Below, piece by piece: positions 14,965 through 61,225 of a stretch of DNA of 64,000 nucleotides (position 1 is the stretch's first letter; the number at the start of each line of letters is the position of its first letter). The DNA lies in the IMG/VR virus record IMGVR_UViG_3300014885_000003, positions 4,737 to 68,736 of that record. One strand, written 5' to 3'. A program made the translations under genes and the position numbers. The stretch is from a virus. The notes beneath the pieces were generated by a model. It was not told the origin of the DNA. It searched no databases and was given only the letters and a program-made list of their open reading frames with translations.

Positions 14965-15197
14965 CGACGATCACAGTGGCCTGGAGACGTGTCGTGCAAG
15001 TCAAGCCGTACGAAAGTCTGGAGTTCCAACTAGGCATGACGGACACGCTGGACCGCGATCCGATCATGCCCTCTGATACGACTCAGGCAGTCGCAGCACG
15101 AGGCGCTCAGGTCGCGAAGATCGAGGCGGATCTGTATCGACAACTCGCACATGTGGGCAACGCGCTGGTCGCCGAGCAACTGGCTAAGCTGAAGTGA
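14961..15197 (+). CDS. Hypothetical protein
   Basis: Coupled to both neighbours; QVKPYES motif. Confidence 0.55.
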   Translation: MTTITVAWRRVVQVKPYESLEFQLGMTDTLDRDPIMPSDTTQAVAARGAQVAKIEADLYRQLAHVGNALVAEQLAKLK

Positions 15198-16186
15198 ACC
15201 TCGACGCGTACATTCGTTCTCGCGTCGCCATTCGAAACGACGATGGTGGACGAGGGTACGACGAAGGTATTCGGACGTTCGACTGTCCGCACTGCCACGA
15301 CAGGAAGGGCCGTGGATGGATGAACATCTTGCGGTGGACGGCCGGCTGCTGGAACCTCGGCTGCCTGGCCGAACCTCGTGTTGATGGCGGAGCGCTAGAG
15401 TGGGCTCGCGTCCTGGAAGACCTGAACACACGAGGTCGAACGTGGCACTTCCTGAACACGGAGTTTCCTGGGGAGTCGTCGTTTCAGCCGACGCGGTTGC
15501 TCAAGATCACCGACTGGTGTGTCTTCCCGAAGACAGCTCACTGGTTCTCGGACGAAGAGACTAGACTGGAATATCCGTATCGGATCTTCATCAAAGCGCA
15601 GTGGGGCCTTTCCCGTCTCGACGCGATCAAGTGGGAACTCGGCTGGTCGTTCGCAGGGCGTTACCGGCTTCGTGTGATCATTCCAATCATCATGGATCAT
15701 CGGCCTGTCGCGTTCCAGGCTCGGACGATTCATCCGATGGGAGAACCGAAGTACCTGACATCGAAGCATGGTGAGTACGGAACGATCGACTCGGAGTGCG
15801 GACGTCCTGCCCGTGCGTTGCTATTCAATCTGGACGCTGCGCCTTCGCAATCAGAGCTGATGCTGGTCGAAGGTCCGGGTGACGTCATGCAATGGACGAA
15901 GCGTCGACAGGACACCATCCCTTTCGGTCTGCTAGGAACAGCATTGACTCCGGAGAAAATCGGTCTGATCGCGATCCGGCGACCACGTCGCGTGATCGTC
16001 GCGCTTGACGCGGAACCGGAGGCGCAACGCCGGGCGCTCGCCCACGTGGAAGACCTTGAGGCGTGGGGAATCCCCGCCGTCCTGGGCACGTGGTCAGGAG
16101 GCAAGGACGCTGGTAGCGGCGCCAGGCTAGATGTCAAAGAGGCACTAGGTCTCGCTGATCAGATCCGCGCCCGCCTTCGTTCTTAA
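15194..16186 (+). CDS. DNA primase (Zn finger plus TOPRIM)
   Basis: CPHC...CWNLGC; IIPI...FQAR; LVEGPGD; ALDAE; KDAG. Confidence 0.85.
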   Translation: MNLDAYIRSRVAIRNDDGGRGYDEGIRTFDCPHCHDRKGRGWMNILRWTAGCWNLGCLAEPRVDGGALEWARVLEDLNTRGRTWHFLNTEFPGESSFQPTRLLKITDWCVFPKTAHWFSDEETRLEYPYRIFIKAQWGLSRLDAIKWELGWSFAGRYRLRVIIPIIMDHRPVAFQARTIHPMGEPKYLTSKHGEYGTIDSECGRPARALLFNLDAAPSQSELMLVEGPGDVMQWTKRRQDTIPFGLLGTALTPEKIGLIAIRRPRRVIVALDAEPEAQRRALAHVEDLEAWGIPAVLGTWSGGKDAGSGARLDVKEALGLADQIRARLRS

Positions 16187-16278
16187 CTAGTTGATCTTCA
16201 TGGAGTAAACCCGCATCGTAACTACTCAATAAATATACGCTACTTTTTGGTCCTTCGTACGGCCGTAACTGTTTGATA
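16184..16278. promoter_or_regulatory. Two IHF-consensus sites in an AT-rich intergenic region
   Basis: TAACTGTTTGATA (16266-16278) matches YAANNNNTTGATW exactly; TAACTAGTTGATC (16184-16196) has one mismatch. Confidence 0.5.
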
Positions 16279-16355
16279 CTCCAGAGAAAGATTTTTCAAA
16301 GTGCCTACTGTTTCCCCGGGGAATGACGATAACCTATGTGTAGGGACGAAGTAAA

Positions 16356-16546
16356 ACCGACCTAGACCCGGACGGTCGGTGGCCGAAAGGCCGCAGGTGC
16401 GGGGGCGAAGGTGGCAGGCCACGGACAAGCCACCGCAAGATACCGGGAGGGATTGACGTCCCTTCGGTCAGGACCAGCGGCACTGAAAAGTGCCTTGCAC
16501 TGGATCACCGGCACCGGGATCGAATCGCAACCCTGACGAACTCAGG
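16356..16546 (+). ncRNA. Highly structured leader RNA
   Basis: About seven consecutive hairpins, two with GAAA tetraloops; multibranch closed by GUGCGG/UUGCAC; no credible ORF. Confidence 0.55.
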
Positions 16547-16553
16547 AGCGTAA

Positions 16554-16646
16554 GCAGAGGGACAGGAACAGCCATGCGGAAGTAAGGTCCTAGTAGAGGC
16601 CATGAGCTGGTCCTGGTAATGCAGATGTCCGGTCCCAACTCCGGAC
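16554..16646 (+). ncRNA. Permuted twister-like ribozyme copy 1 (extended P1)
   Basis: GCAGAGGGAC-[long P1]-GGUAAUGC-AG-AU-GUCCGG-UCCCAACU-CCGGAC. Confidence 0.8.
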
Positions 16647-16661
16647 AGAAAGGGAATAACG

Positions 16662-16901
16662 ATGACGGCGAGAAACTGGATCGCTGAAGGTCGGTCGGTC
16701 GGAGTCCAGCCGGATGGAACGATTCATTACTACGCGGTAGCAGAACGGCCGAACGGAACGCTGACGCTGATGTACGTGACCAACTTCAAACAGCGGACCG
16801 TGAATCGGGAATGGCTGTCGACGACGTACGCGCCCGGCCGCAAGGGCGCAAAGGCAGCGGTGGATCATCTGAACGTTCTGAATTTTCCGCCGTCCGCGTA
16901 A
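16662..16901 (+). CDS. Small hypothetical protein (early-type cluster)
   Basis: AAGGG SD directly after ribozyme 1. Confidence 0.7.
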   Translation: MTARNWIAEGRSVGVQPDGTIHYYAVAERPNGTLTLMYVTNFKQRTVNREWLSTTYAPGRKGAKAAVDHLNVLNFPPSA

Positions 16902-16925
16902 GCAGAACGAAAAAGGAGAAACACA

Positions 16926-17102
16926 ATGATCAAGTCAGGCGACACGATTTTCGTGGTGGAAGTGATCGCGGACGACAGCGGAAAGTGGTGCGGCAACGGT
17001 CTGGAGTTCGCCTCGCGCGAAGCCGCTGAACAGTACGCGGCCGATCTATTCTCGCGGTGGTCGGCCGTACGCGAAACACGCGTGGTTCGCGGAACGAAGT
17101 AA
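16926..17102 (+). CDS. 58-aa hypothetical protein (not in ORF track)
   Basis: AAGGAG SD; MIKSGDTIFVVEVIADDSGKWCGNGLEFASREAAE...; stop abuts ribozyme 2. Confidence 0.7.
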   Translation: MIKSGDTIFVVEVIADDSGKWCGNGLEFASREAAEQYAADLFSRWSAVRETRVVRGTK

Positions 17103-17104
17103 AA

Positions 17105-17165
17105 GCAGAGGGACAGGAAGGCAACGCCCTTCCTGGTAATGCGCAGTCCGGTCCCAAGCCCGGAC
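17105..17165 (+). ncRNA. Permuted twister-like ribozyme copy 2
   Basis: GCAGAGGGAC-AGGAAGG..CCUUCCU-GGUAAUGC-GC-A-GUCCGG-UCCCAAGC-CCGGAC. Confidence 0.85.
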
Positions 17166-17182
17166 GAAAGGGAGAAACAACG

Positions 17183-17422
17183 ATGACGAAGAAGGATTAC
17201 GTGCTGATCGCGAACGCTATCCGCGCCGCTCACGGCGAGACCGGCAGTCATGTGGTCATCCGGACCGCCGAGCACATCGCGGAAGCGCTCCGTGGTTCGA
17301 ATCCGCTGTTCGATACCAGCAAGTTCATGGCAGCCGTTCGTGATCCGAAGGTGCCAGCGTTTTATCCCGTGACCGATCAGAACGGCAAGCGAATCCTCGT
17401 GACGATCCCGGAGACGAAGTGA
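17183..17422 (+). CDS. Small hypothetical protein (MTKKDYVLIA family)
   Basis: GGGAG SD after ribozyme 2; KDY.LIA...NP.FD..KF pattern common in phage proteins. Confidence 0.7.
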   Translation: MTKKDYVLIANAIRAAHGETGSHVVIRTAEHIAEALRGSNPLFDTSKFMAAVRDPKVPAFYPVTDQNGKRILVTIPETK

Positions 17423-17661
17423 TGGTCCGCGCGATCCTGCACTACTCGGTTCGGATTCCGCACTACTGGGTGTCGATCGGCGATCAGAACACGTCATTCA
17501 ATCGGAAGCCGCAAGCGCTAGCATTCCTCCGGAAGCACAACCGGCAGGTCGACGCGGAGAACGGAGCGGCGGTCCAGGCAGCGATTCGCCGATCAAAGGC
17601 GTTCCTAGCCGACGATTGCAGCGCGTGCTCGATCGGCCGCTGCCAGTATCACGGCGCATAG
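17419..17661 (+). CDS. Small hypothetical protein
   Basis: GTGA coupling; TAG overlaps the first G of ribozyme 3. Confidence 0.6.
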   Translation: MMVRAILHYSVRIPHYWVSIGDQNTSFNRKPQALAFLRKHNRQVDAENGAAVQAAIRRSKAFLADDCSACSIGRCQYHGA

Positions 17662-17719
17662 CAGAGGGACGGAGGCCTCCAGCCTCCGGTAATGCAGAAG
17701 TCCGGTCCCAACTCCGGAC
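17661..17719 (+). ncRNA. Permuted twister-like ribozyme copy 3
   Basis: P1 CGGAGGC/GCCUCCG; UAAUGC-AG pairs with loop CU. Confidence 0.85.
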
Positions 17720-17735
17720 AGGAAAGGGTCAAACG

Positions 17736-17936
17736 ATGAAGACGATCATGCTGTATCGAGGTATCAACGGATTTTGGTCGGCTGATGATGGATCGGCAAC
17801 GTACGAGACGGCCTATCACAGCACCGCGGATGCGATGGTTGTGCTATCTGGTGTGCGCGCGATTGTTCGCAGCCTTGATCCCGGTACGGAAGTGATCATC
17901 AAGTCAGGTCATGAAGCACAACCGGAGGTGATGTAA
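17736..17936 (+). CDS. Small hypothetical protein
   Basis: AAAGGG SD after ribozyme 3; TAATG coupling downstream. Confidence 0.65.
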   Translation: MKTIMLYRGINGFWSADDGSATYETAYHSTADAMVVLSGVRAIVRSLDPGTEVIIKSGHEAQPEVM

Positions 17937-18310
17937 TGAAGCTGTTCACGGCACGATACGCGGGGTTTTGCACGGGATGTTCTGCGGCAATCGAGCCGGG
18001 CGACCGGGTGCTGTTCGCGGGACAGAAGCGGATTTACTGCTCGGTGGAGTGTGAACGCGTGAACCACCGGATGACGGACGAAGAGATCAAGGCCGACAAC
18101 CGAGCAGCGTTCTTCGCCAGCATGCCGAAGAATCCTGGTGACGAGCGCTGCGACGATTGCAGCGGGACCGGAACGCGGATCTGGGGCGCGATCGTGAACG
18201 GTGTTCCGACGCATTCCGGAGTGTGCTTCCGGTGTCAGGGGAAGGGCAAGCAGAGCCTGGCTGATCGTCGCCGGAACTTCACGTACGACTGCCACCGTCA
18301 GGCGGTCTAG
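17936..18310 (+). CDS. Zinc-finger protein (DnaJ-like CxxCxGxG repeats)
   Basis: CTGC, CSVEC, CDDCSGTG, CFRCQGKG. Confidence 0.7.
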   Translation: MKLFTARYAGFCTGCSAAIEPGDRVLFAGQKRIYCSVECERVNHRMTDEEIKADNRAAFFASMPKNPGDERCDDCSGTGTRIWGAIVNGVPTHSGVCFRCQGKGKQSLADRRRNFTYDCHRQAV

Positions 18311-18371
18311 CAGAGGGACAGGAAGGCAACGCCTTCCTGGTAATGCGCAGTCCTGGCCCCAAGCCCAGGAC
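18310..18371 (+). ncRNA. Permuted twister-like ribozyme copy 4
   Basis: P4 variant GUCCUGG/CCAGGAC with a compensatory extra pair; loop CCCCAAGC. Confidence 0.85.
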
Positions 18372-18387
18372 AAAAGGAGGGAAGACG

Positions 18388-18648
18388 ATGACGAAGAAGA
18401 CCAGAGAGGCAGCAAATCTCAGCGCGGCCGACGCGCGAGTTACCCGAGTCGTCAAGCTGGGCACTCCTCAAGCTGTCATCATCGAACAGGCCAGCGCTAT
18501 CCTGACGCAACTTGATCGGGTCCGCGCGAACGTGGAAGCGCGACGCAACGAAGCCGAAACGACCTTCTTCATCAACTGGGCTCACGTCGGCGATCTTCGC
18601 CATGTGCGAGATCTGCTCGACGAAATCACGACATTCCTGAGAGCGTGA
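18388..18648 (+). CDS. Small hypothetical protein (INWAHVGDL motif)
   Basis: AGGAGG SD after ribozyme 4. Confidence 0.7.
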   Translation: MTKKTREAANLSAADARVTRVVKLGTPQAVIIEQASAILTQLDRVRANVEARRNEAETTFFINWAHVGDLRHVRDLLDEITTFLRA

Positions 18649-18651
18649 AAA

Positions 18652-18858
18652 ATGACCAGGTTTTCTCGGAGGCATTACCGGCTCCTGTCGAATGGAGGCC
18701 TGGACACGGCAGAACAGATTGCCGATCGGCTTCGCTACAGCGCCGCTGCTGAACGGGCGATTCGAGATCGTGAGGAACTGTTTCCGGTGCTGACGGCCGA
18801 TAATGCGGCCGAAGCGATCGCATGGCAAGAACGTCGAATCAGGGAGCTGACGTCATGA
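18652..18858 (+). CDS. Small hypothetical protein
   Basis: Tightly packed ORF. Confidence 0.55.
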   Translation: MTRFSRRHYRLLSNGGLDTAEQIADRLRYSAAAERAIRDREELFPVLTADNAAEAIAWQERRIRELTS

Positions 18859-19076
18859 AGGCAGGCGACATCCTGATGTACCGCACGACGCGGGTTCGGT
18901 TCGTGGAAATGACGACGGACGGTCTGGCCAGGATCGACCGGAACGGCGAGTCCTGGCAGGTGCTGGCCAGCGAGCTGAAGCCGGTGCCGAAGCGCCGGAA
19001 CGTTCGCGACCAGGTCTACCGTGATCTCGGGATGGTCAAGGTTCGAGGCGCCCTCGGAGGCGTGTATCACGAGTAA
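18855..19076 (+). CDS. Small hypothetical protein
   Basis: ATGA coupling; C-terminal LGMVKVRGALGGVYHE; stop abuts ribozyme 5. Confidence 0.6.
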   Translation: MKAGDILMYRTTRVRFVEMTTDGLARIDRNGESWQVLASELKPVPKRRNVRDQVYRDLGMVKVRGALGGVYHE

Positions 19077-19077
19077 T

Positions 19078-19137
19078 CGCAGAGTGACGGGCGCCCGCGG
19101 CCCGGGAATGCGGCAGGCCGGGTCACAAGCCCCGGCC
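19078..19137 (+). ncRNA. Permuted twister-like ribozyme copy 5 (divergent)
   Basis: GAGUG/UCAC replaces GAGGG/UCCC (compensatory); P4 GGCCGGG/CCCGGCC; G rather than U before the cleavage-site A. Confidence 0.8.
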
Positions 19138-19153
19138 GGAAAGGCGACAAACG

Positions 19154-19474
19154 ATGACGACTCATCGATACTTCGAAGACGCGTTTACGAGTGTGGCGGA
19201 GGTTCTGAACGGCGGGTTCGAGCAGCTCTTCGGAAACTACGGCGACGACTTCGGCACGATGGTCCGACGGACGGTGACCTTCTTCCGCGACAACGGCCGG
19301 GCTGATGTCGCATCGACGTTTCAGGCATCGCTTGGTCTGGTCAACCTCACCGCAGGTCGGACCGGCAAGGTGGATCGTGAGGACTTCGATGCCGACGCGC
19401 TGGACGCGCTCGACACGGTGTTCTACGGTCAGTCGGATTCGGTCAAGCACCTGTTCCCTGAGGAGGCCGCATAA
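19154..19474 (+). CDS. Hypothetical protein
   Basis: SD after ribozyme 5; TAATG coupling downstream. Confidence 0.65.
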   Translation: MTTHRYFEDAFTSVAEVLNGGFEQLFGNYGDDFGTMVRRTVTFFRDNGRADVASTFQASLGLVNLTAGRTGKVDREDFDADALDALDTVFYGQSDSVKHLFPEEAA

Positions 19475-19740
19475 TGGCGAAGGCGAAGAAGACGGTCCAG
19501 GTGGAAGCGATCAGGGAGCGCGTGAACAACCTCTTGACGATCGACAACGAACACGTGACAGCCGACTTCAGGAAGGGCGCCGCGTCGGTCCTGGAAACGG
19601 TCCTACATGCCGCGAACGCGTACCGCGGGTTCCAGTACAACGCCTGGTCGGAAGGCGGGTACACGCGCTGGCAAGCGGACGGTGAGCCGAAGGATAAGAC
19701 ACCGTACCTCGGCGATCAGACCAAGCGGTACTACTACTAG
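19474..19740 (+). CDS. Hypothetical protein
   Basis: LETVLH...YRGFQY...RYYY pattern; TAG overlaps ribozyme 6. Confidence 0.7.
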   Translation: MAKAKKTVQVEAIRERVNNLLTIDNEHVTADFRKGAASVLETVLHAANAYRGFQYNAWSEGGYTRWQADGEPKDKTPYLGDQTKRYYY

Positions 19741-19801
19741 CAGAGGGACGCGATGTCTTCGGGCGTCGCGGTAATGCAGAGGTCCGGTCCCAACTCCGGA
19801 C
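19740..19801 (+). ncRNA. Permuted twister-like ribozyme copy 6
   Basis: P1 CGCGAUGUC-UUCG-GGCGUCGCG, unrelated in sequence to the other P1 stems; core conserved. Confidence 0.85.
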
Positions 19802-19817
19802 AGGAAAGGGTCAAACG

Positions 19818-19901
19818 ATGAATCCGTCCTTGCTGAATCGTCCGTTCGGATGGGCGCTGATGATCGCGGCGTCGCAGTGCATCGCGTGGGTGTTCGCATG
19901 A
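19818..19901 (+). CDS. 27-aa hydrophobic peptide (not in ORF track)
   Basis: Same GGAAAGGGTCAAACGATG initiation region as the gene after ribozyme 3. Confidence 0.5.
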   Translation: MNPSLLNRPFGWALMIAASQCIAWVFA

Positions 19902-19923
19902 CCAGACAGGAGAAAGGCTAAAA

Positions 19924-20145
19924 ATGCTCTGGAAAGTCCGGCTCACCGCCCGCTGGATCAGCGCCAGCCGCGGCCATAATCAGCGCGGTGTCGTTCGCGT
20001 CCTGGCCGTCGTCGCGGATGATCCCGCGCTCGCCCAGAACATGGCGATCACTCGCGTCGCGACTCCGACGAAGCATGGCGCGTACACCAACGTCAGCGTC
20101 GTCAGGATCGACGCGGTTCAGGATGGCATCATCAGCGTTCGATAG
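19924..20145 (+). CDS. Small hypothetical protein
   Basis: AGGAG SD. Confidence 0.6.
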   Translation: MLWKVRLTARWISASRGHNQRGVVRVLAVVADDPALAQNMAITRVATPTKHGAYTNVSVVRIDAVQDGIISVR

Positions 20146-20163
20146 GAAAAGGGGGAAGGACCG

Positions 20164-20415
20164 ATGAGACTCTACGTCGTCACCATCCGTATTCACGTGA
20201 CCGCGAAGATGGATCGAGTCATCAAGTACATCGTCATGGCGAACGGCGCGCCAGCTGCCACGAAGAAAATTGCCGCGGTCTATCCTGACGCGACGATCGA
20301 TGTTCAGCAGTGGAACGCCGACGCTATGCTGTTCGCGCAGTACAACGAAGGCGTCAAGCCGAACCGTTTCACCAGGGCCGAGGTCGCATCGATCTCAAAA
20401 GGCCTGAACTCCTAG
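20164..20415 (+). CDS. Small hypothetical protein
   Basis: Purine-rich SD; TAG overlaps ribozyme 7. Confidence 0.65.
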   Translation: MRLYVVTIRIHVTAKMDRVIKYIVMANGAPAATKKIAAVYPDATIDVQQWNADAMLFAQYNEGVKPNRFTRAEVASISKGLNS

Positions 20416-20474
20416 CAGAGGGACAGGAAGGCAACGCCTTCCTGGTAATGCGCAGTCCGGTCCCAAGCCCGGAC
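20415..20474 (+). ncRNA. Permuted twister-like ribozyme copy 7
   Basis: Near-identical to copy 2. Confidence 0.85.
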
Positions 20475-20487
20475 GGAAAGGTCAATC

Positions 20488-20943
20488 ATGTCGGACTACT
20501 CTACGATCGACACGAAGTACGGAATGATTCGGATCAGTATCACGGACGGCGATCACATCTTCATCAGCGCCGCGGACGCTGTGACGTTCTGGGGCGTTCG
20601 CTATAGCCTCAGTGTTCACCTTGTCCGATACGAGGACGGCTGGGCGATCCAGCGTGATGGCCACGGACGGACGCGGTGGGACTGCCTGAGCGGCACGCGG
20701 CAGCGCTGGACGAATTACAATCAGGCGGGGCTGTCGGCCGGTGCCAGGAAGCGCGTGGCCGAGGAGATCGTTCCTGTCGTCGCGAAGTGGGCGAGCGAGA
20801 ACTCGGATCTGATCGACGTCGCCCAGCACAAGCACATCGAAGCGGAAATCGCTCGGCGGGAGGAGAAGATCGCGGAGCATCAGAACGCAATCACCGAGCT
20901 GGTAACGGAAATCATCGCGCTGAGAGAAGGGGTGGCAAGGTGA
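20488..20943 (+). CDS. Hypothetical protein with C-terminal coiled coil
   Basis: GAAAGG SD after ribozyme 7. Confidence 0.65.
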   Translation: MSDYSTIDTKYGMIRISITDGDHIFISAADAVTFWGVRYSLSVHLVRYEDGWAIQRDGHGRTRWDCLSGTRQRWTNYNQAGLSAGARKRVAEEIVPVVAKWASENSDLIDVAQHKHIEAEIARREEKIAEHQNAITELVTEIIALREGVAR

Positions 20944-21784
20944 CGCCGGGAGTCGAGCGCGCTCTCCGACTTCAGCACGAACGTGTCAAGGCTGAACGCG
21001 TGGTACTTCAGACGAAGATCAAACGGCTCGAAAGGAGGGACCGTGATCATTGACAACGGATTCGAGCCAGGGCAGACCGTCGAGGTTCTGCCTCCTGGTG
21101 GCCGGAAGTTCCGAGGCGTCATCGAACAAATCGACGAAGACAACTTCGGTCCGCTGATCTATGTCATCCACTTCGTCGGAGGCCGGGAGCTGACGACGTC
21201 GTACAGGGCGGCTGATGTCCGGGCCCTCCCCCGCGACTTCTGTATGCTCTGCGGCGAACGCATGGAAGGTCAACGAAACTCCTCCTGCCGTAGCTCGCAC
21301 GGTGCCGCATGACCACCACGTGCACTCACCGGAAAATCGTGAGGGAGTCGGGTGTGTTCGCACGATGCGCGGGATGTCAGACGCCGATGCTCCTCCGTGA
21401 GATCGACGGCATCGAAGTGTATGACGTGATCCCACGCGCCGAGTCGTGGGGTCAGGGGCTCAGCACGGGCATTCGCGACTGCCTCCGCGGTATCGATCTG
21501 CGACGGAGCCCGGAAGCGTCCTGGTCATCGAAGTTCGTCGACGGCTACTCCTCCGGGTGGCACCTCGCTGAGACGGAGGCGAAGTGAAAATGGAATACGA
21601 AGATCACGAGGCCAGAGAACGCGCCGGACTGGTCGCGTGTGACGATGCCGCATGTACCGCGGTGGTCAATCCCGTGACGATCGAAGAGCTTCAAGTAGCG
21701 CTTGCCCACTGGCGAGGTCATCGTTACTTGTACGGGTGTTCTCATGGCGGTCGGTGATATAAAAAGGTGACACGGGAGGGAACG

Positions 21785-22333: not shown

Positions 22334-22444
22334 TCTGCCCTCGCTGTGGTCGACCGATGGTCGGATGGCTGGTGGTACGGCCGGACCGTTGTAGTCCGAA
22401 GTACTGGGTCAACTGTATTCGCAACCCGAAGTGAAAGGGACACC

Positions 22445-24049
22445 ATGAAGCTGATCGACTCACTCAAGGCGATCCGTCGCACGTCAACTCCCCTGGTCGG
22501 TATCGAGTCGCCCGATCCCGGAGCGACGATCCAGGTCATTCGCGCAGCGTTCGAGGAAGGCACGACACCGCTACCGCTCTTCCGGTGGGACATCAGCAAC
22601 GGCCTGTCGCCGATGAACAAGTCCGGTCTGGAGATCATGCGGAAGCTGTTGAGCGGCACGGAGCCGAACGAGTGGCCCGGTATGACGTCGAACCCGGGAC
22701 AGTGCCTGGTGCTTCTTCAGAACCTTCCCGGTGAGGACAACGAAGGCGACAAGGTGACTTGCCGGGCTCCCATGGTGTTCTTCCTCAATCCGCAACTGTT
22801 CGTCAGCGGCGACAAGCCGGACGAGCCGACGATCCAAGGCATCTGGAACCTGCGCGACCTGTTCAAGCAGGACCGCCGGACGCTGATCATGCTCGGGACG
22901 TCTCTCCGGATGCCTCCGGAGTTGTCGCAGGACGTGATCATTCTGAAAGAACCGCTGCCGGCAGACGATCAGCTCGGTGAGATCATCGCGGCTCAGATGG
23001 AGGGCTTCGGCCTGAAGCTGACCGATAACGTCAAGGCGCAGGCGATCGACGCAACCCGAGGTCTGTCCGCCTTCGTGGCAGAGCAGGCGACGGCCATGTC
23101 GATCGGCGACGAAGGGATCATCCTCGGCGACCTCTGGGAACGCAAGCGGACCGCGATCGAGCAGACCCGCGGTCTATCGGTCGATCGTGGGTCGGAAGAC
23201 TTCGCCTCGATCGGTGGTCAGAGTCAGATTAAGAAGTTCGGGACGCTGCTCCTGAAGTCGCCTCGGCGCCCTCGGTTGTTCGTCCGGATCGATGAGCTGG
23301 AGAAGATGCTCGGCGGAGCCGGCACCCGAGGAGCAGGCGACAATACGGGCGTGTCGCAGGATAGGCTCGGAACGATCCTTCGGGAGATGGAAGACAACGA
23401 TTGGACCGGGCTCCTGGCCGTCGGCCCTGCCGGTTCCGGAAAGTCGCTCCTCAGCAAGGCCCTCGGCAACTCCTCCGATCCGCAGGTCATGAGTATCGCG
23501 ATGGACCTTGGCGCCATGAGTTCCGGTCGGGTCGGCGCGTCTGAGACCTTGATTCGTGATGCGATGCGGACGATCAAGGGCGTTGCCGGTCCTGGAGGCG
23601 CGTTCTTTATCGCGACTGTCAACAAGCTGGACGTCCTACCGCCGGAGCTGCGACGCAGGTTCCGAATGGGCATCTGGTTCTTCGATCTTCCTGACGCTGA
23701 TGAGCTTGCGAGTATCTGGGAGATTAACCTGGCCAAGTACAGCTTGGCGAAGTCGACCCGCGGAAAGGACATGATCGACGATACGAACCTGACCGGCGCC
23801 GACATCCGGAACCTGTGCGACATTGCGTCGCGCCTCGGGTGTTCGCTGAAGGAGGCGTTCCAGTACATCACACCCATCGCGGTGTCCGATCCTGACTCGA
23901 TCGATAACCTTCGTCGGACCGCTGACGGTCGGTTCCTGTCGGCGTCGAAGCCAGGCCCGTACCGGATGGGTGATCCGCTGGTGAAGGTCACGACGAACAT
24001 CTCAGCGACGGCAGCTCCACGCCGAGCGCGATTCGGAGAGGAGCGATGA
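22445..24049 (+). CDS. Ycf46-like AAA+ ATPase with rearranged ATPase core
   Basis: Degenerate N-terminal AAA domain (WDISNGL, PPEL, PLP), IGG motif, RIDELEK, GPAGSGKS, ATVNKLDVLPPELRRRF, FFDLP, TGADI. Confidence 0.85.
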   Translation: MKLIDSLKAIRRTSTPLVGIESPDPGATIQVIRAAFEEGTTPLPLFRWDISNGLSPMNKSGLEIMRKLLSGTEPNEWPGMTSNPGQCLVLLQNLPGEDNEGDKVTCRAPMVFFLNPQLFVSGDKPDEPTIQGIWNLRDLFKQDRRTLIMLGTSLRMPPELSQDVIILKEPLPADDQLGEIIAAQMEGFGLKLTDNVKAQAIDATRGLSAFVAEQATAMSIGDEGIILGDLWERKRTAIEQTRGLSVDRGSEDFASIGGQSQIKKFGTLLLKSPRRPRLFVRIDELEKMLGGAGTRGAGDNTGVSQDRLGTILREMEDNDWTGLLAVGPAGSGKSLLSKALGNSSDPQVMSIAMDLGAMSSGRVGASETLIRDAMRTIKGVAGPGGAFFIATVNKLDVLPPELRRRFRMGIWFFDLPDADELASIWEINLAKYSLAKSTRGKDMIDDTNLTGADIRNLCDIASRLGCSLKEAFQYITPIAVSDPDSIDNLRRTADGRFLSASKPGPYRMGDPLVKVTTNISATAAPRRARFGEER

Positions 24050-61150: not shown

Positions 61151-61225
61151 CGGGGCGTGGGCCAACGGCTGGCCACCTGGTTTGGGACCAGGGTTACGCG
61201 GGTTCAACTCCTGCCGCCCCGACCA
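61151..61225 (+). tRNA. tRNA-Pro(UGG)
   Basis: Acceptor CGGGGCG/CGCCCCG-A-CCA, anticodon arm CCTGG-TT-TGG-GA-CCAGG, GGTTCAAC T-loop. Confidence 0.92.

Follow-up and report, generated by a model that had tools for sequence, protein, structure and literature searches.

A conserved array of type-P5 twister ribozymes between the small genes of an uncultivated tailed phage

The DNA considered here (the window, 64,000 nt in length) comprises bases 4737–68736 of the linear, 68,736-nt virus record IMGVR_UViG_3300014885_000003 from IMG/VR, which is estimated to be 71% complete. A run of small genes in its replication module is punctuated by seven short intergenic elements, and our analysis identifies these as members of the catalogued type-P5 twister ribozyme family (Rfam RF02684). 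They are probably functional self-cleaving ribozymes, which would divide a single long transcript into six messages with hairpins at their ends; what the sequences show is the family membership, the covariation of the fold, the geometry of the surrounding genes and the conservation of the array in a relative. The array is a clean example of an arrangement which has been proposed for phages since 2011, and represents neither a new class of ribozyme nor a new principle.

An earlier note on this DNA had described seven intergenic, twister-like elements in this region. Each of the elements listed there is present and the identification was right, although it can now be sharpened: in the covariance-model search which the note had proposed, carried out with cmscan against Rfam release 15 at the gathering threshold, all seven sites match Twister-P5 on the + strand over the full length of the model (positions 1–58 of 58) with 44.3–58.3 bits, i.e. 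7–21 bits above the curated gathering score of 37.6 bits. The whole 68.7-kb record contains the same seven copies and exactly seven, and the same search returned no Twister-P5 in 14 control genomes. Other ribozyme classes were searched for in the window at E ≤ 1 and none was found, save a chance sub-threshold match to M23 over ribozyme 5. A covariance model made in this analysis (R1) and run unfiltered over 12–27 kb of the window recovers the seven copies at 55–70.6 bits, followed by a next best match of 10.2 bits, and no decayed copies were found with it in that range. A loose pattern of the core matches the window six times compared to 0.02 expected matches, and none of 100 shuffles reaches six; it misses copy 1 because of the long P1 of this copy. 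In detail, the seven elements are the following:

16553–16647, + strand: Twister-P5 ribozyme 1 (Rfam 44.3 bits at 16553–16644; R1 55.0 bits)
17104–17166, + strand: Twister-P5 ribozyme 2 (Rfam 58.1 bits at 17104–17163; R1 69.3 bits)
17660–17720, + strand: Twister-P5 ribozyme 3 (Rfam 56.0 bits at 17660–17717)
18309–18371, + strand: Twister-P5 ribozyme 4 (Rfam 49.9 bits at 18309–18368)
19078–19137, + strand: Twister-P5 ribozyme 5 (Rfam 50.3 bits at 19078–19134)
19739–19802, + strand: Twister-P5 ribozyme 6 (Rfam 52.6 bits at 19739–19799)
20414–20475, + strand: Twister-P5 ribozyme 7 (Rfam 58.3 bits at 20414–20472), followed by a gene of 151 amino acids at 20488

PMC5408937 and PMC10085705 trace the twister class to Roth et al. 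2014. All copies start at the 3' strand of P2 and end after P4, which places their termini at the P5 position, and they share with RF02684 the order P2 3' strand, T2, P1, cut site, P2 5' strand, T1 and P4/L4, together with the core, the two pseudoknots and the N^A site. The ribozyme itself shows no difference to the family; the copies found here lack a closing P5 helix, copy 1 has an insertion in P1 and copy 5 has a G at position N-1. All seven copies keep GCAGAG, AAUGC and the CAA of L4 unchanged. The same is true of the A 3' of the scissile bond, which is preceded by U in six copies and by G in copy 5, where the U at this position of twister ribozymes is a non-conserved one (PMC5408937). The predicted cuts lie at U16617^A16618, U17137^A17138, U17690^A17691, U18341^A18342, G19106^A19107, U19772^A19773 and U20446^A20447, from copy 1 to copy 7, and the cleavage coordinates given by the earlier note agree with these N^AA positions. 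The start of copy 5 needed a small correction: its GCA begins at 19079, and position 19078 holds the C of an additional, fourth pair in P2. Among the individual features, ribozyme 1 carries an insertion of about 40 nt in its P1 loop (predicted fold of the enlarged P1 -18.4 kcal/mol, z -1.7), ribozyme 4 has a P4 of 7 bp and an L4 which begins with C instead of U, and ribozyme 5 has a P2 of 4 bp.

The covariation of the fold was assessed in 58 hits, 54 of them distinct, from the window and from IMG/VR loci. They were aligned to the covariance model, and the alignment is fitted to this model and favours its nested helices, the pseudoknots T1 and T2 being absent from it; in addition, identical ribozyme sequences occur between some of the loci (L021/L101 and L030/L080). 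For the 54 distinct sequences, 93.3% of the cells are paired, compared to 72.7% in shuffles, none of 500 of which reaches the observed value, and to 31.7–41.5% with slid partners. Both sides have changed in 16 of 20 pairs. The helices P1, P2 and P4 are 84–99% paired, with changes on both sides in 13 of the 16 nested pairs, and T2, i.e. GGG(A) with (U)CCC of L4, is 97.2% paired with three of its four pairs compensatory. A separate parse of the T2 triplets gave GUG:CAC 29 times, GGG:CCC 15 times, GCG:CGC three times, GCA:UGC twice and GAG:CUC, GGA:UCC and CGG:CCG once each, plus two imperfect ones. T1, in which the 2 nt that follow P2 pair with the final 2 nt of L4, occurs as GC:GC in 36 rows, GG:CC in five, AC:GU in four, AG:CU in three and GA:UC in one; it is unpaired in five of the 54 rows under the rigid parsing rule, at least two of these being parse errors. 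Within the window, the variation that had been described holds throughout: P1 differs in sequence and nevertheless pairs in every copy (with a UUCG loop in copy 6), P4 occurs in the three variants noted, T2 is GGG:CCC in six copies and GUG:CAC in copy 5, and T1 is GC:GC in copies 2, 4, 5 and 7 and AG:CU in copies 1, 3 and 6. As read from these alignments, the compensatory changes show selection on the RNA fold.

These data also bear on the possibility that the elements are non-cleaving structured spacers, for example hairpin insulators or protein-binding sites which resemble a twister. Cleavage is a prediction here and some computationally predicted ribozymes do not cleave (PMC8782182), but simple hairpins would not need the covariation of T1 and T2, and the core positions, both pseudoknots and the A of the cleavage site are kept in seven of seven copies that score 7–21 bits above the curated threshold. 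We regard such spacers as highly improbable.

The position of the ribozymes between the genes is equally regular, and the geometry reported by the earlier note was reproduced. In copies 2–7, six of six cases, the distance between the ribozyme start and the stop codon before it is -1 to +2 nt: copies 3, 4, 6 and 7 share the G of its TAG, and copies 2 and 5 start 2 nt past the TAA. Every copy ends just before a Shine-Dalgarno (SD) sequence, and a purine-rich SD and an ATG are found 12–16 nt after P4 in all seven. Copy 1 is preceded by a non-coding leader of 366 nt without a credible open reading frame (ORF). The units measure 520, 553, 651, 765, 666 and 674 nt and form six blocks of 2–3 genes, bounded by the seven coding-strand ribozymes and lying amid phage genes:

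16662–17102, + strand: cassette 1, two small genes (79 and 58 amino acids; ORFs with SD)
17183–17661, + strand: cassette 2, two small genes that overlap (79 and 79 amino acids; ORFs)
17736–18310, + strand: cassette 3, genes of 66 and 124 amino acids (ORFs)
18388–19076, + strand: cassette 4, three small genes (86, 68 and 73 amino acids; ORFs)
19154–19740, + strand: cassette 5, a DMP19-like protein (106 amino acids; Pfam) and a protein of 88 amino acids
19818–20415, + strand: cassette 6, three small genes (27, 73 and 83 amino acids; ORFs with SD)

The eight gene junctions without a ribozyme measure -4 to +24 nt, and the genes inside one unit therefore look translationally coupled. By codon position, the GC content of the small ORFs on the + strand follows that of the long genes (GC3 0.57–0.87), whereas the overlapping antisense ORFs show a mirror pattern unlike that of the long genes. 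A search for sigma-70-like promoters and intrinsic terminators on the + strand over 12–25 kb returned none, though phage promoters may differ, and this absence is weak evidence in favour of one transcript. The operon may be an early one, as the earlier note had called it.

In searches against Pfam and PHROG, nearly all of the small cassette proteins are orphans. The proteins of cassettes 1 and 2 match no family in either collection, and the two larger proteins of cassette 6 match none in Pfam. The second protein of cassette 3 is Cys-rich and shows a weak match to the DnaJ CXXCXGXG family PF00684 (E 4.6e-4, below the curated cut-off). The gene at 19154–19474, directly after ribozyme 5, matches PF14300 (DMP19) with an E-value of 1.1e-7 and 32.8 bits compared to a cut-off of 25; a search of its protein against PDB sequences gave no match. 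DMP19 is a DNA mimic, as is ArdA.

A relative of this phage carries the same kind of array. Four loci from IMG/VR (L127, L129, L144 and L095) are parts of one 18,515-nt contig, here called L129, which is collinear with the window; 12 long ORFs of the window, belonging to the replication module, match it at 30–72% identity, including the DnaB-like protein (55%), the primase (60%), the AAA protein (67%) and the polymerase (55%). It contains six Twister-P5 copies (49.5–64 bits) in the same slot between the primase and the AAA gene and in the same register of stop codon, ribozyme and SD; in three cases its ribozymes bound single genes. A tblastn search of L129 with the 14 window genes that lie between ribozymes 1 and 7 gave no hit for any of them. 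By this comparison of sequences, the ribozymes are kept while the gene cassettes differ. The conserved flanks and the leader are the following:

15194–16186, + strand: Toprim (primase-like) gene, conserved left flank (Pfam Toprim weak; 60% identical to its homologue in L127/L129)
16187–16552, + strand: non-coding leader from the Toprim gene to ribozyme 1 (no credible ORF)
22346–24049, + strand: AAA ATPase gene, conserved right flank (Pfam AAA; 67% identical in L129)

More distant relatives are without the array. A profile of the AAA protein led to 13 further loci, whose homologue is 25–53% identical; no array was found in them, the only hit being a weak one of 24.7 bits in L135, and the seven of them which were run through Rfam contain no ribozyme. 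A primase profile used to search for more relatives found only L127 again. Since the 13 more distant AAA loci lack it, the array is, as judged from these sequences, a feature of a narrow clade.

Several copies within the window share long identical runs, of 47 nt between ribozymes 4 and 7, 39 nt between ribozymes 2 and 7 and 41 nt between ribozymes 3 and 6, the latter (17700–17740) extending through the SD and the ATG. Runs of this length point to duplication or gene conversion as their probable source. The DNA contigs of sequencing runs X1–X4 are 99+% identical to the window and show no variants except one joint in X4, where a single contig with a depth of about 3 connects 17699 to 19782 exactly across the repeat of ribozymes 3 and 6 and in this way skips 2,082 nt, i.e. 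three cassettes. The skipped part between 17699 and 19782 is present in X4 at similar depth. Recombination between two ribozymes would be expected to yield just such a joint. The contig is nevertheless probably a chimera that arose during assembly at the 41-nt repeat, the contigs of these runs having presumably been built from 31-mers.

These observations raise the question of whether the ribozyme with its SD is kept mainly as a DNA site for the gain, loss and swapping of cassettes, a role which would be compatible with cleavage. The 40–60-nt repeats would then be the ribozyme counterpart of the PeSLs, promoter-stem-loop repeats which are found in hyperplastic regions of T4-type phages (PMC2839356, PMC4122927). 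In both cases short, conserved regulatory repeats alternate with small variable genes in a phage of the T4 style, and close relatives differ in these genes; PeSLs, however, are promoter/terminator motifs that act on transcription, whereas the elements found here are catalytic RNAs which act after it. Such a role is suggested by the collinearity of the window and L129, in which the leader is conserved up to ribozyme 1 and yet none of the 14 genes that follow has a tblastn hit, by the identical runs listed above, by the X4 joint and by the remark of Perreault et al. 2011 (PMC3088659) on clustered hammerheads, whose flanked genes "are not constant". On the right side, however, the homology to L129 resumes about 1.3 kb past ribozyme 7 and not at the ribozyme, the X4 joint is one contig of low depth at an exact repeat and most simply a chimera, and the comparison is one of two related genomes only. 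Furthermore, the covariation of helices and pseudoknots indicates selection on an RNA fold, which a DNA site would not need. We consider the role as a DNA site possible, but doubtful as the main reason why the ribozymes are kept.

Arrays also occur in other viral contigs. Searching IMG/VR with the loose pattern listed 119 stretches (at least 119 in all), which are not a random sample; 34 of those listed contain one or more R1 hits at E ≤ 0.01, five of these 34 having two or more. L095 was counted among the loci and is part of the L129 contig. Copies confirmed by Rfam as Twister-P5 number, among the matches listed, six in L075 (a contig of 5.5 kb), four in L105, three in L100 and two in L023, and L050 has two copies together with a Pistol ribozyme. 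By protein, these five contigs are unrelated to the window save for one helicase match at 26% identity. The Pistol ribozyme of L050 (4030–4087, - strand; 42.4 bits compared to a gathering score of 34.5) lies between the twister copies on the same strand, and ribozyme classes are therefore mixed in one array. In L075 (2754–2798, 3328–3372 and 4988–5030), another repeated element, a CCCGG...CCGGG hairpin, stands between the ribozyme and a GAGGAG SD at three of the six copies. The spacers of L100 and L023 contain repeats of a CCGCAGAGGAGC motif which resembles the 5' end of the ribozyme itself. One of five array positions in L105 (1778–1839, - strand) has a non-consensus core (GCAGGCGGG ... UCCGUAGC); it is found by R1 only, with 34.1 bits, is not listed by Rfam at the gathering score and is possibly a decaying copy.

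The occurrence in unrelated contigs, the narrow distribution among relatives (present in the window and L129, absent from the 13 more distant AAA relatives) and the near-identical copies within one genome would all fit a selfish repeat unit that spreads within and between phage genomes and whose cleavage is neutral or mildly costly. However, all 13 copies in the two relatives are intact, on one strand, strictly intergenic and in register with stop codon and SD, no decayed copy was found over 12–27 kb of the window, and the fold is maintained by compensatory changes. In addition, no transposase or reverse transcriptase was noticed beside the array in general domain scans. A selfish repeat is therefore an unlikely explanation.

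If the elements are the self-cleaving ribozymes which we take them to be, the course of events may be pictured as follows. Each ribozyme would fold during transcription (P2, P1, P4 and the pseudoknots T1 and T2) and then cut N^AA at the base of P1, the N-A step at this place being where twister ribozymes cut (PMC5408937). Afterwards the two products would be held together only by 3–4 bp of P2 and 3–4 bp of T2 and should separate, because of the P5-type strand order and because a closing P5 helix is absent. P5 is an optional stem (PMC5408937) that lies outside the RF02684 model, and a search for it in the flanks of the 13 copies of the window and L127/L129 gave in no case a result better than shuffles. 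The upstream mRNA would then end with its stop codon, GCAGAGGGA, a stable P1 hairpin and G-U>p, a 2',3'-cyclic phosphate, and the downstream mRNA would start with HO-AAUGC..., i.e. with a 5'-OH and 8–9 free nucleotides, after which come the P4 hairpin, an SD free of pairing and the ATG. Folding predicts P1 and P4 to be stable and leaves the SD single-stranded in both of the 3' products to which it was applied. We also considered a pairing of the SD with L4 after cleavage, as the GGGA of the SD resembles the T2 strand; this idea was dropped because the copies with a GUG:CAC T2, namely copy 5 and those of L075, show no corresponding change in the SD. The yield would be a leader RNA and six messages of 520–765 nt, each with 2–3 translationally coupled genes. 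Host exonucleases and 5'-end-dependent decay should act poorly on the ends of these messages, and each cassette would then be expressed independently of its neighbours. Cleavage in vivo, a single transcript and the stabilisation or insulation of its pieces are what we infer from the arrangement.

An engineered system offers a guide to what such pieces may do. In pRAP, a twister placed upstream of each ribosome-binding site cuts polycistronic RNA into translated cistrons in E. coli, and a stem-loop just 5' of the cut site is required for the expression of the released cistrons (PMC9872166). Both arrangements have a twister between cistrons and before each ribosome-binding site, with a hairpin 5' of the cut. 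The artificial one, however, uses a twister which cuts at its own 5' end and an added stem-loop, whereas the natural P5 copies would use their own P1 as that hairpin and P4 would cap the next message. Because pRAP needed this hairpin and P1 supplies it here, the six messages may well be end-capped and insulated from each other.

Alternatively, the ends of a unit (5'-OH and 2',3'-cyclic phosphate) could be joined by RtcB or by reversal of the ribozyme and give rise to circular mRNAs. The cleavage chemistry does leave ligatable ends (PMC8782182), and each unit is bounded by two ribozyme halves. RtcB, RNA ligase and AAA_33 kinase domains were, however, searched for in the 68.7-kb record (71% complete) and none was found, no P5 helix is present that could keep the ends together, and spliced or circular products of tandem hammerheads were sought and not found by Perreault et al. 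2011 (PMC3088659). Circular or re-ligated messages are thus very improbable.

Several points weigh against the proposal that the seven ribozymes process one message. Cleavage and the single transcript are predictions from the sequence. Slow cleavage is conceivable for copy 5, with its G before the cut site, and for copy 1, with its 40-nt insertion in P1 and the lowest score. Each ribozyme begins beneath a terminating ribosome, and translation could compete with folding. The proposed stability and insulation draw on general knowledge of bacterial RNA decay and, by analogy, on the engineered system. Finally, the array is not essential to this group of phages, as the 13 more distant relatives do without it.

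The closest known counterpart is found in prophages, where clustered hammerheads flank genes or short blocks of variable gene content and have been proposed to turn long phage transcripts into gene- or operon-length mRNAs; tandem prophage hammerheads cleave in vitro and in E. coli, and in one case the anti-restriction gene ardA lies directly after the hammerhead (Perreault et al. 2011, PMC3088659). In both systems several ribozymes on one strand bracket blocks of phage genes, the identities of these blocks vary between relatives, and the DMP19-like gene after ribozyme 5 stands in the place that ardA occupies there. The differences are that the ribozymes found here are twister P5 instead of hammerhead and seven in number instead of two or three, that they lie in the replication module of a phage with T4-style genes and not in a prophage, and that cleavage was demonstrated there and is predicted here. 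Reviews describe an enrichment of twister and hammerhead ribozymes in the vicinity of phage genes and of one another, for which they know no reason (PMC10085705, PMC6765202), and state that what self-cleaving ribozymes do in bacteria and phages is still largely unknown (PMC6765202, section 13; PMC10085705, introduction). Twister arrays that punctuate phage operons were not found in the literature searched, which did not cover Roth 2014, Weinberg 2015 and supplements, and these may show them.

A tentative extension combines both roles in one: the P5 twister together with its SD may be a portable expression joint, that is an RNA cut which leaves P1 and P4 as end caps and at the same time a DNA site of cassette exchange. 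If this were true, an acquired gene would be expressed and protected whatever its neighbour, the cassettes exchanged between phages would be accessory or anti-defence genes and the 40–60-nt repeats would be the sites of exchange. It would also account for the clustering of self-cleaving ribozymes with one another and with variable phage genes, which is called unexplained in PMC10085705 and PMC6765202.

The points worth keeping are, in our opinion, the conserved array with swapped cassettes and, as an idea, the capping of both new ends by the P5 permutation. With seven intact copies, a precise register of stop codon, ribozyme and SD and a syntenic relative with other genes, the dense array is a compact test case. 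It could be used to test the processing of messages in phages, the repeat-mediated exchange of cassettes and the question of whether the P5 permutation is favoured for leaving hairpins on both new RNA ends, and it is a natural counterpart of engineered ribozyme insulators, a value which is limited by the phage being uncultivated.

The leader before ribozyme 1 is partly conserved as well. Its 3' part of about 210 nt (16340–16552) corresponds to 3905–4125 of L129 with 72% identity over 218 nt in blastn and includes a near-identical block of about 50 nt, in two phages whose proteins are only 55–67% identical. Eight of 49 predicted pairs are compensatory, a count from two sequences only, and the fold of the whole 366-nt leader is not better than that of shuffles (z -1.04). 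The leader has no match in Rfam at E ≤ 1, and a 20-nt word from its core, searched for in viral and metagenome collections, returned the L127 contig again, eight chance matches and nothing else. Cleavage by ribozyme 1 would free the leader as a separate RNA whose 3' end is defined.

All long genes of the window are on the + strand. At the level of Pfam they include a UvsW-like helicase, a DnaB-like helicase, the Toprim (primase-like) protein, the AAA ATPase and a clamp-like protein; further phage genes are a split DNA polymerase, SSB, a DNA methyltransferase, a UvsX-like recombinase, SbcCD-like nucleases and a large terminase. Because of these replication and recombination genes and the large terminase, the source is an uncultivated tailed phage with a T4-style gene set. 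The small-gene run with the seven elements lies between the Toprim and the AAA gene, inside the replication module. A blastn search of 16000–21000 against INPHARED phages gave no match. A search for sequencing runs that contain the region listed twelve, none of them on record as RNA, and the DNA runs among them are freshwater-sediment metagenomes. Downstream of the array, a gap of 179 nt at 21588–21766 between + strand ORFs is without a ribozyme, the start of the next ORF (GTG at 21767) being uncertain. Elsewhere in the window the phage carries a tRNA gene at 61151–61222 (Rfam tRNA, 54.5 bits), which is the sole non-twister Rfam hit above the gathering threshold.

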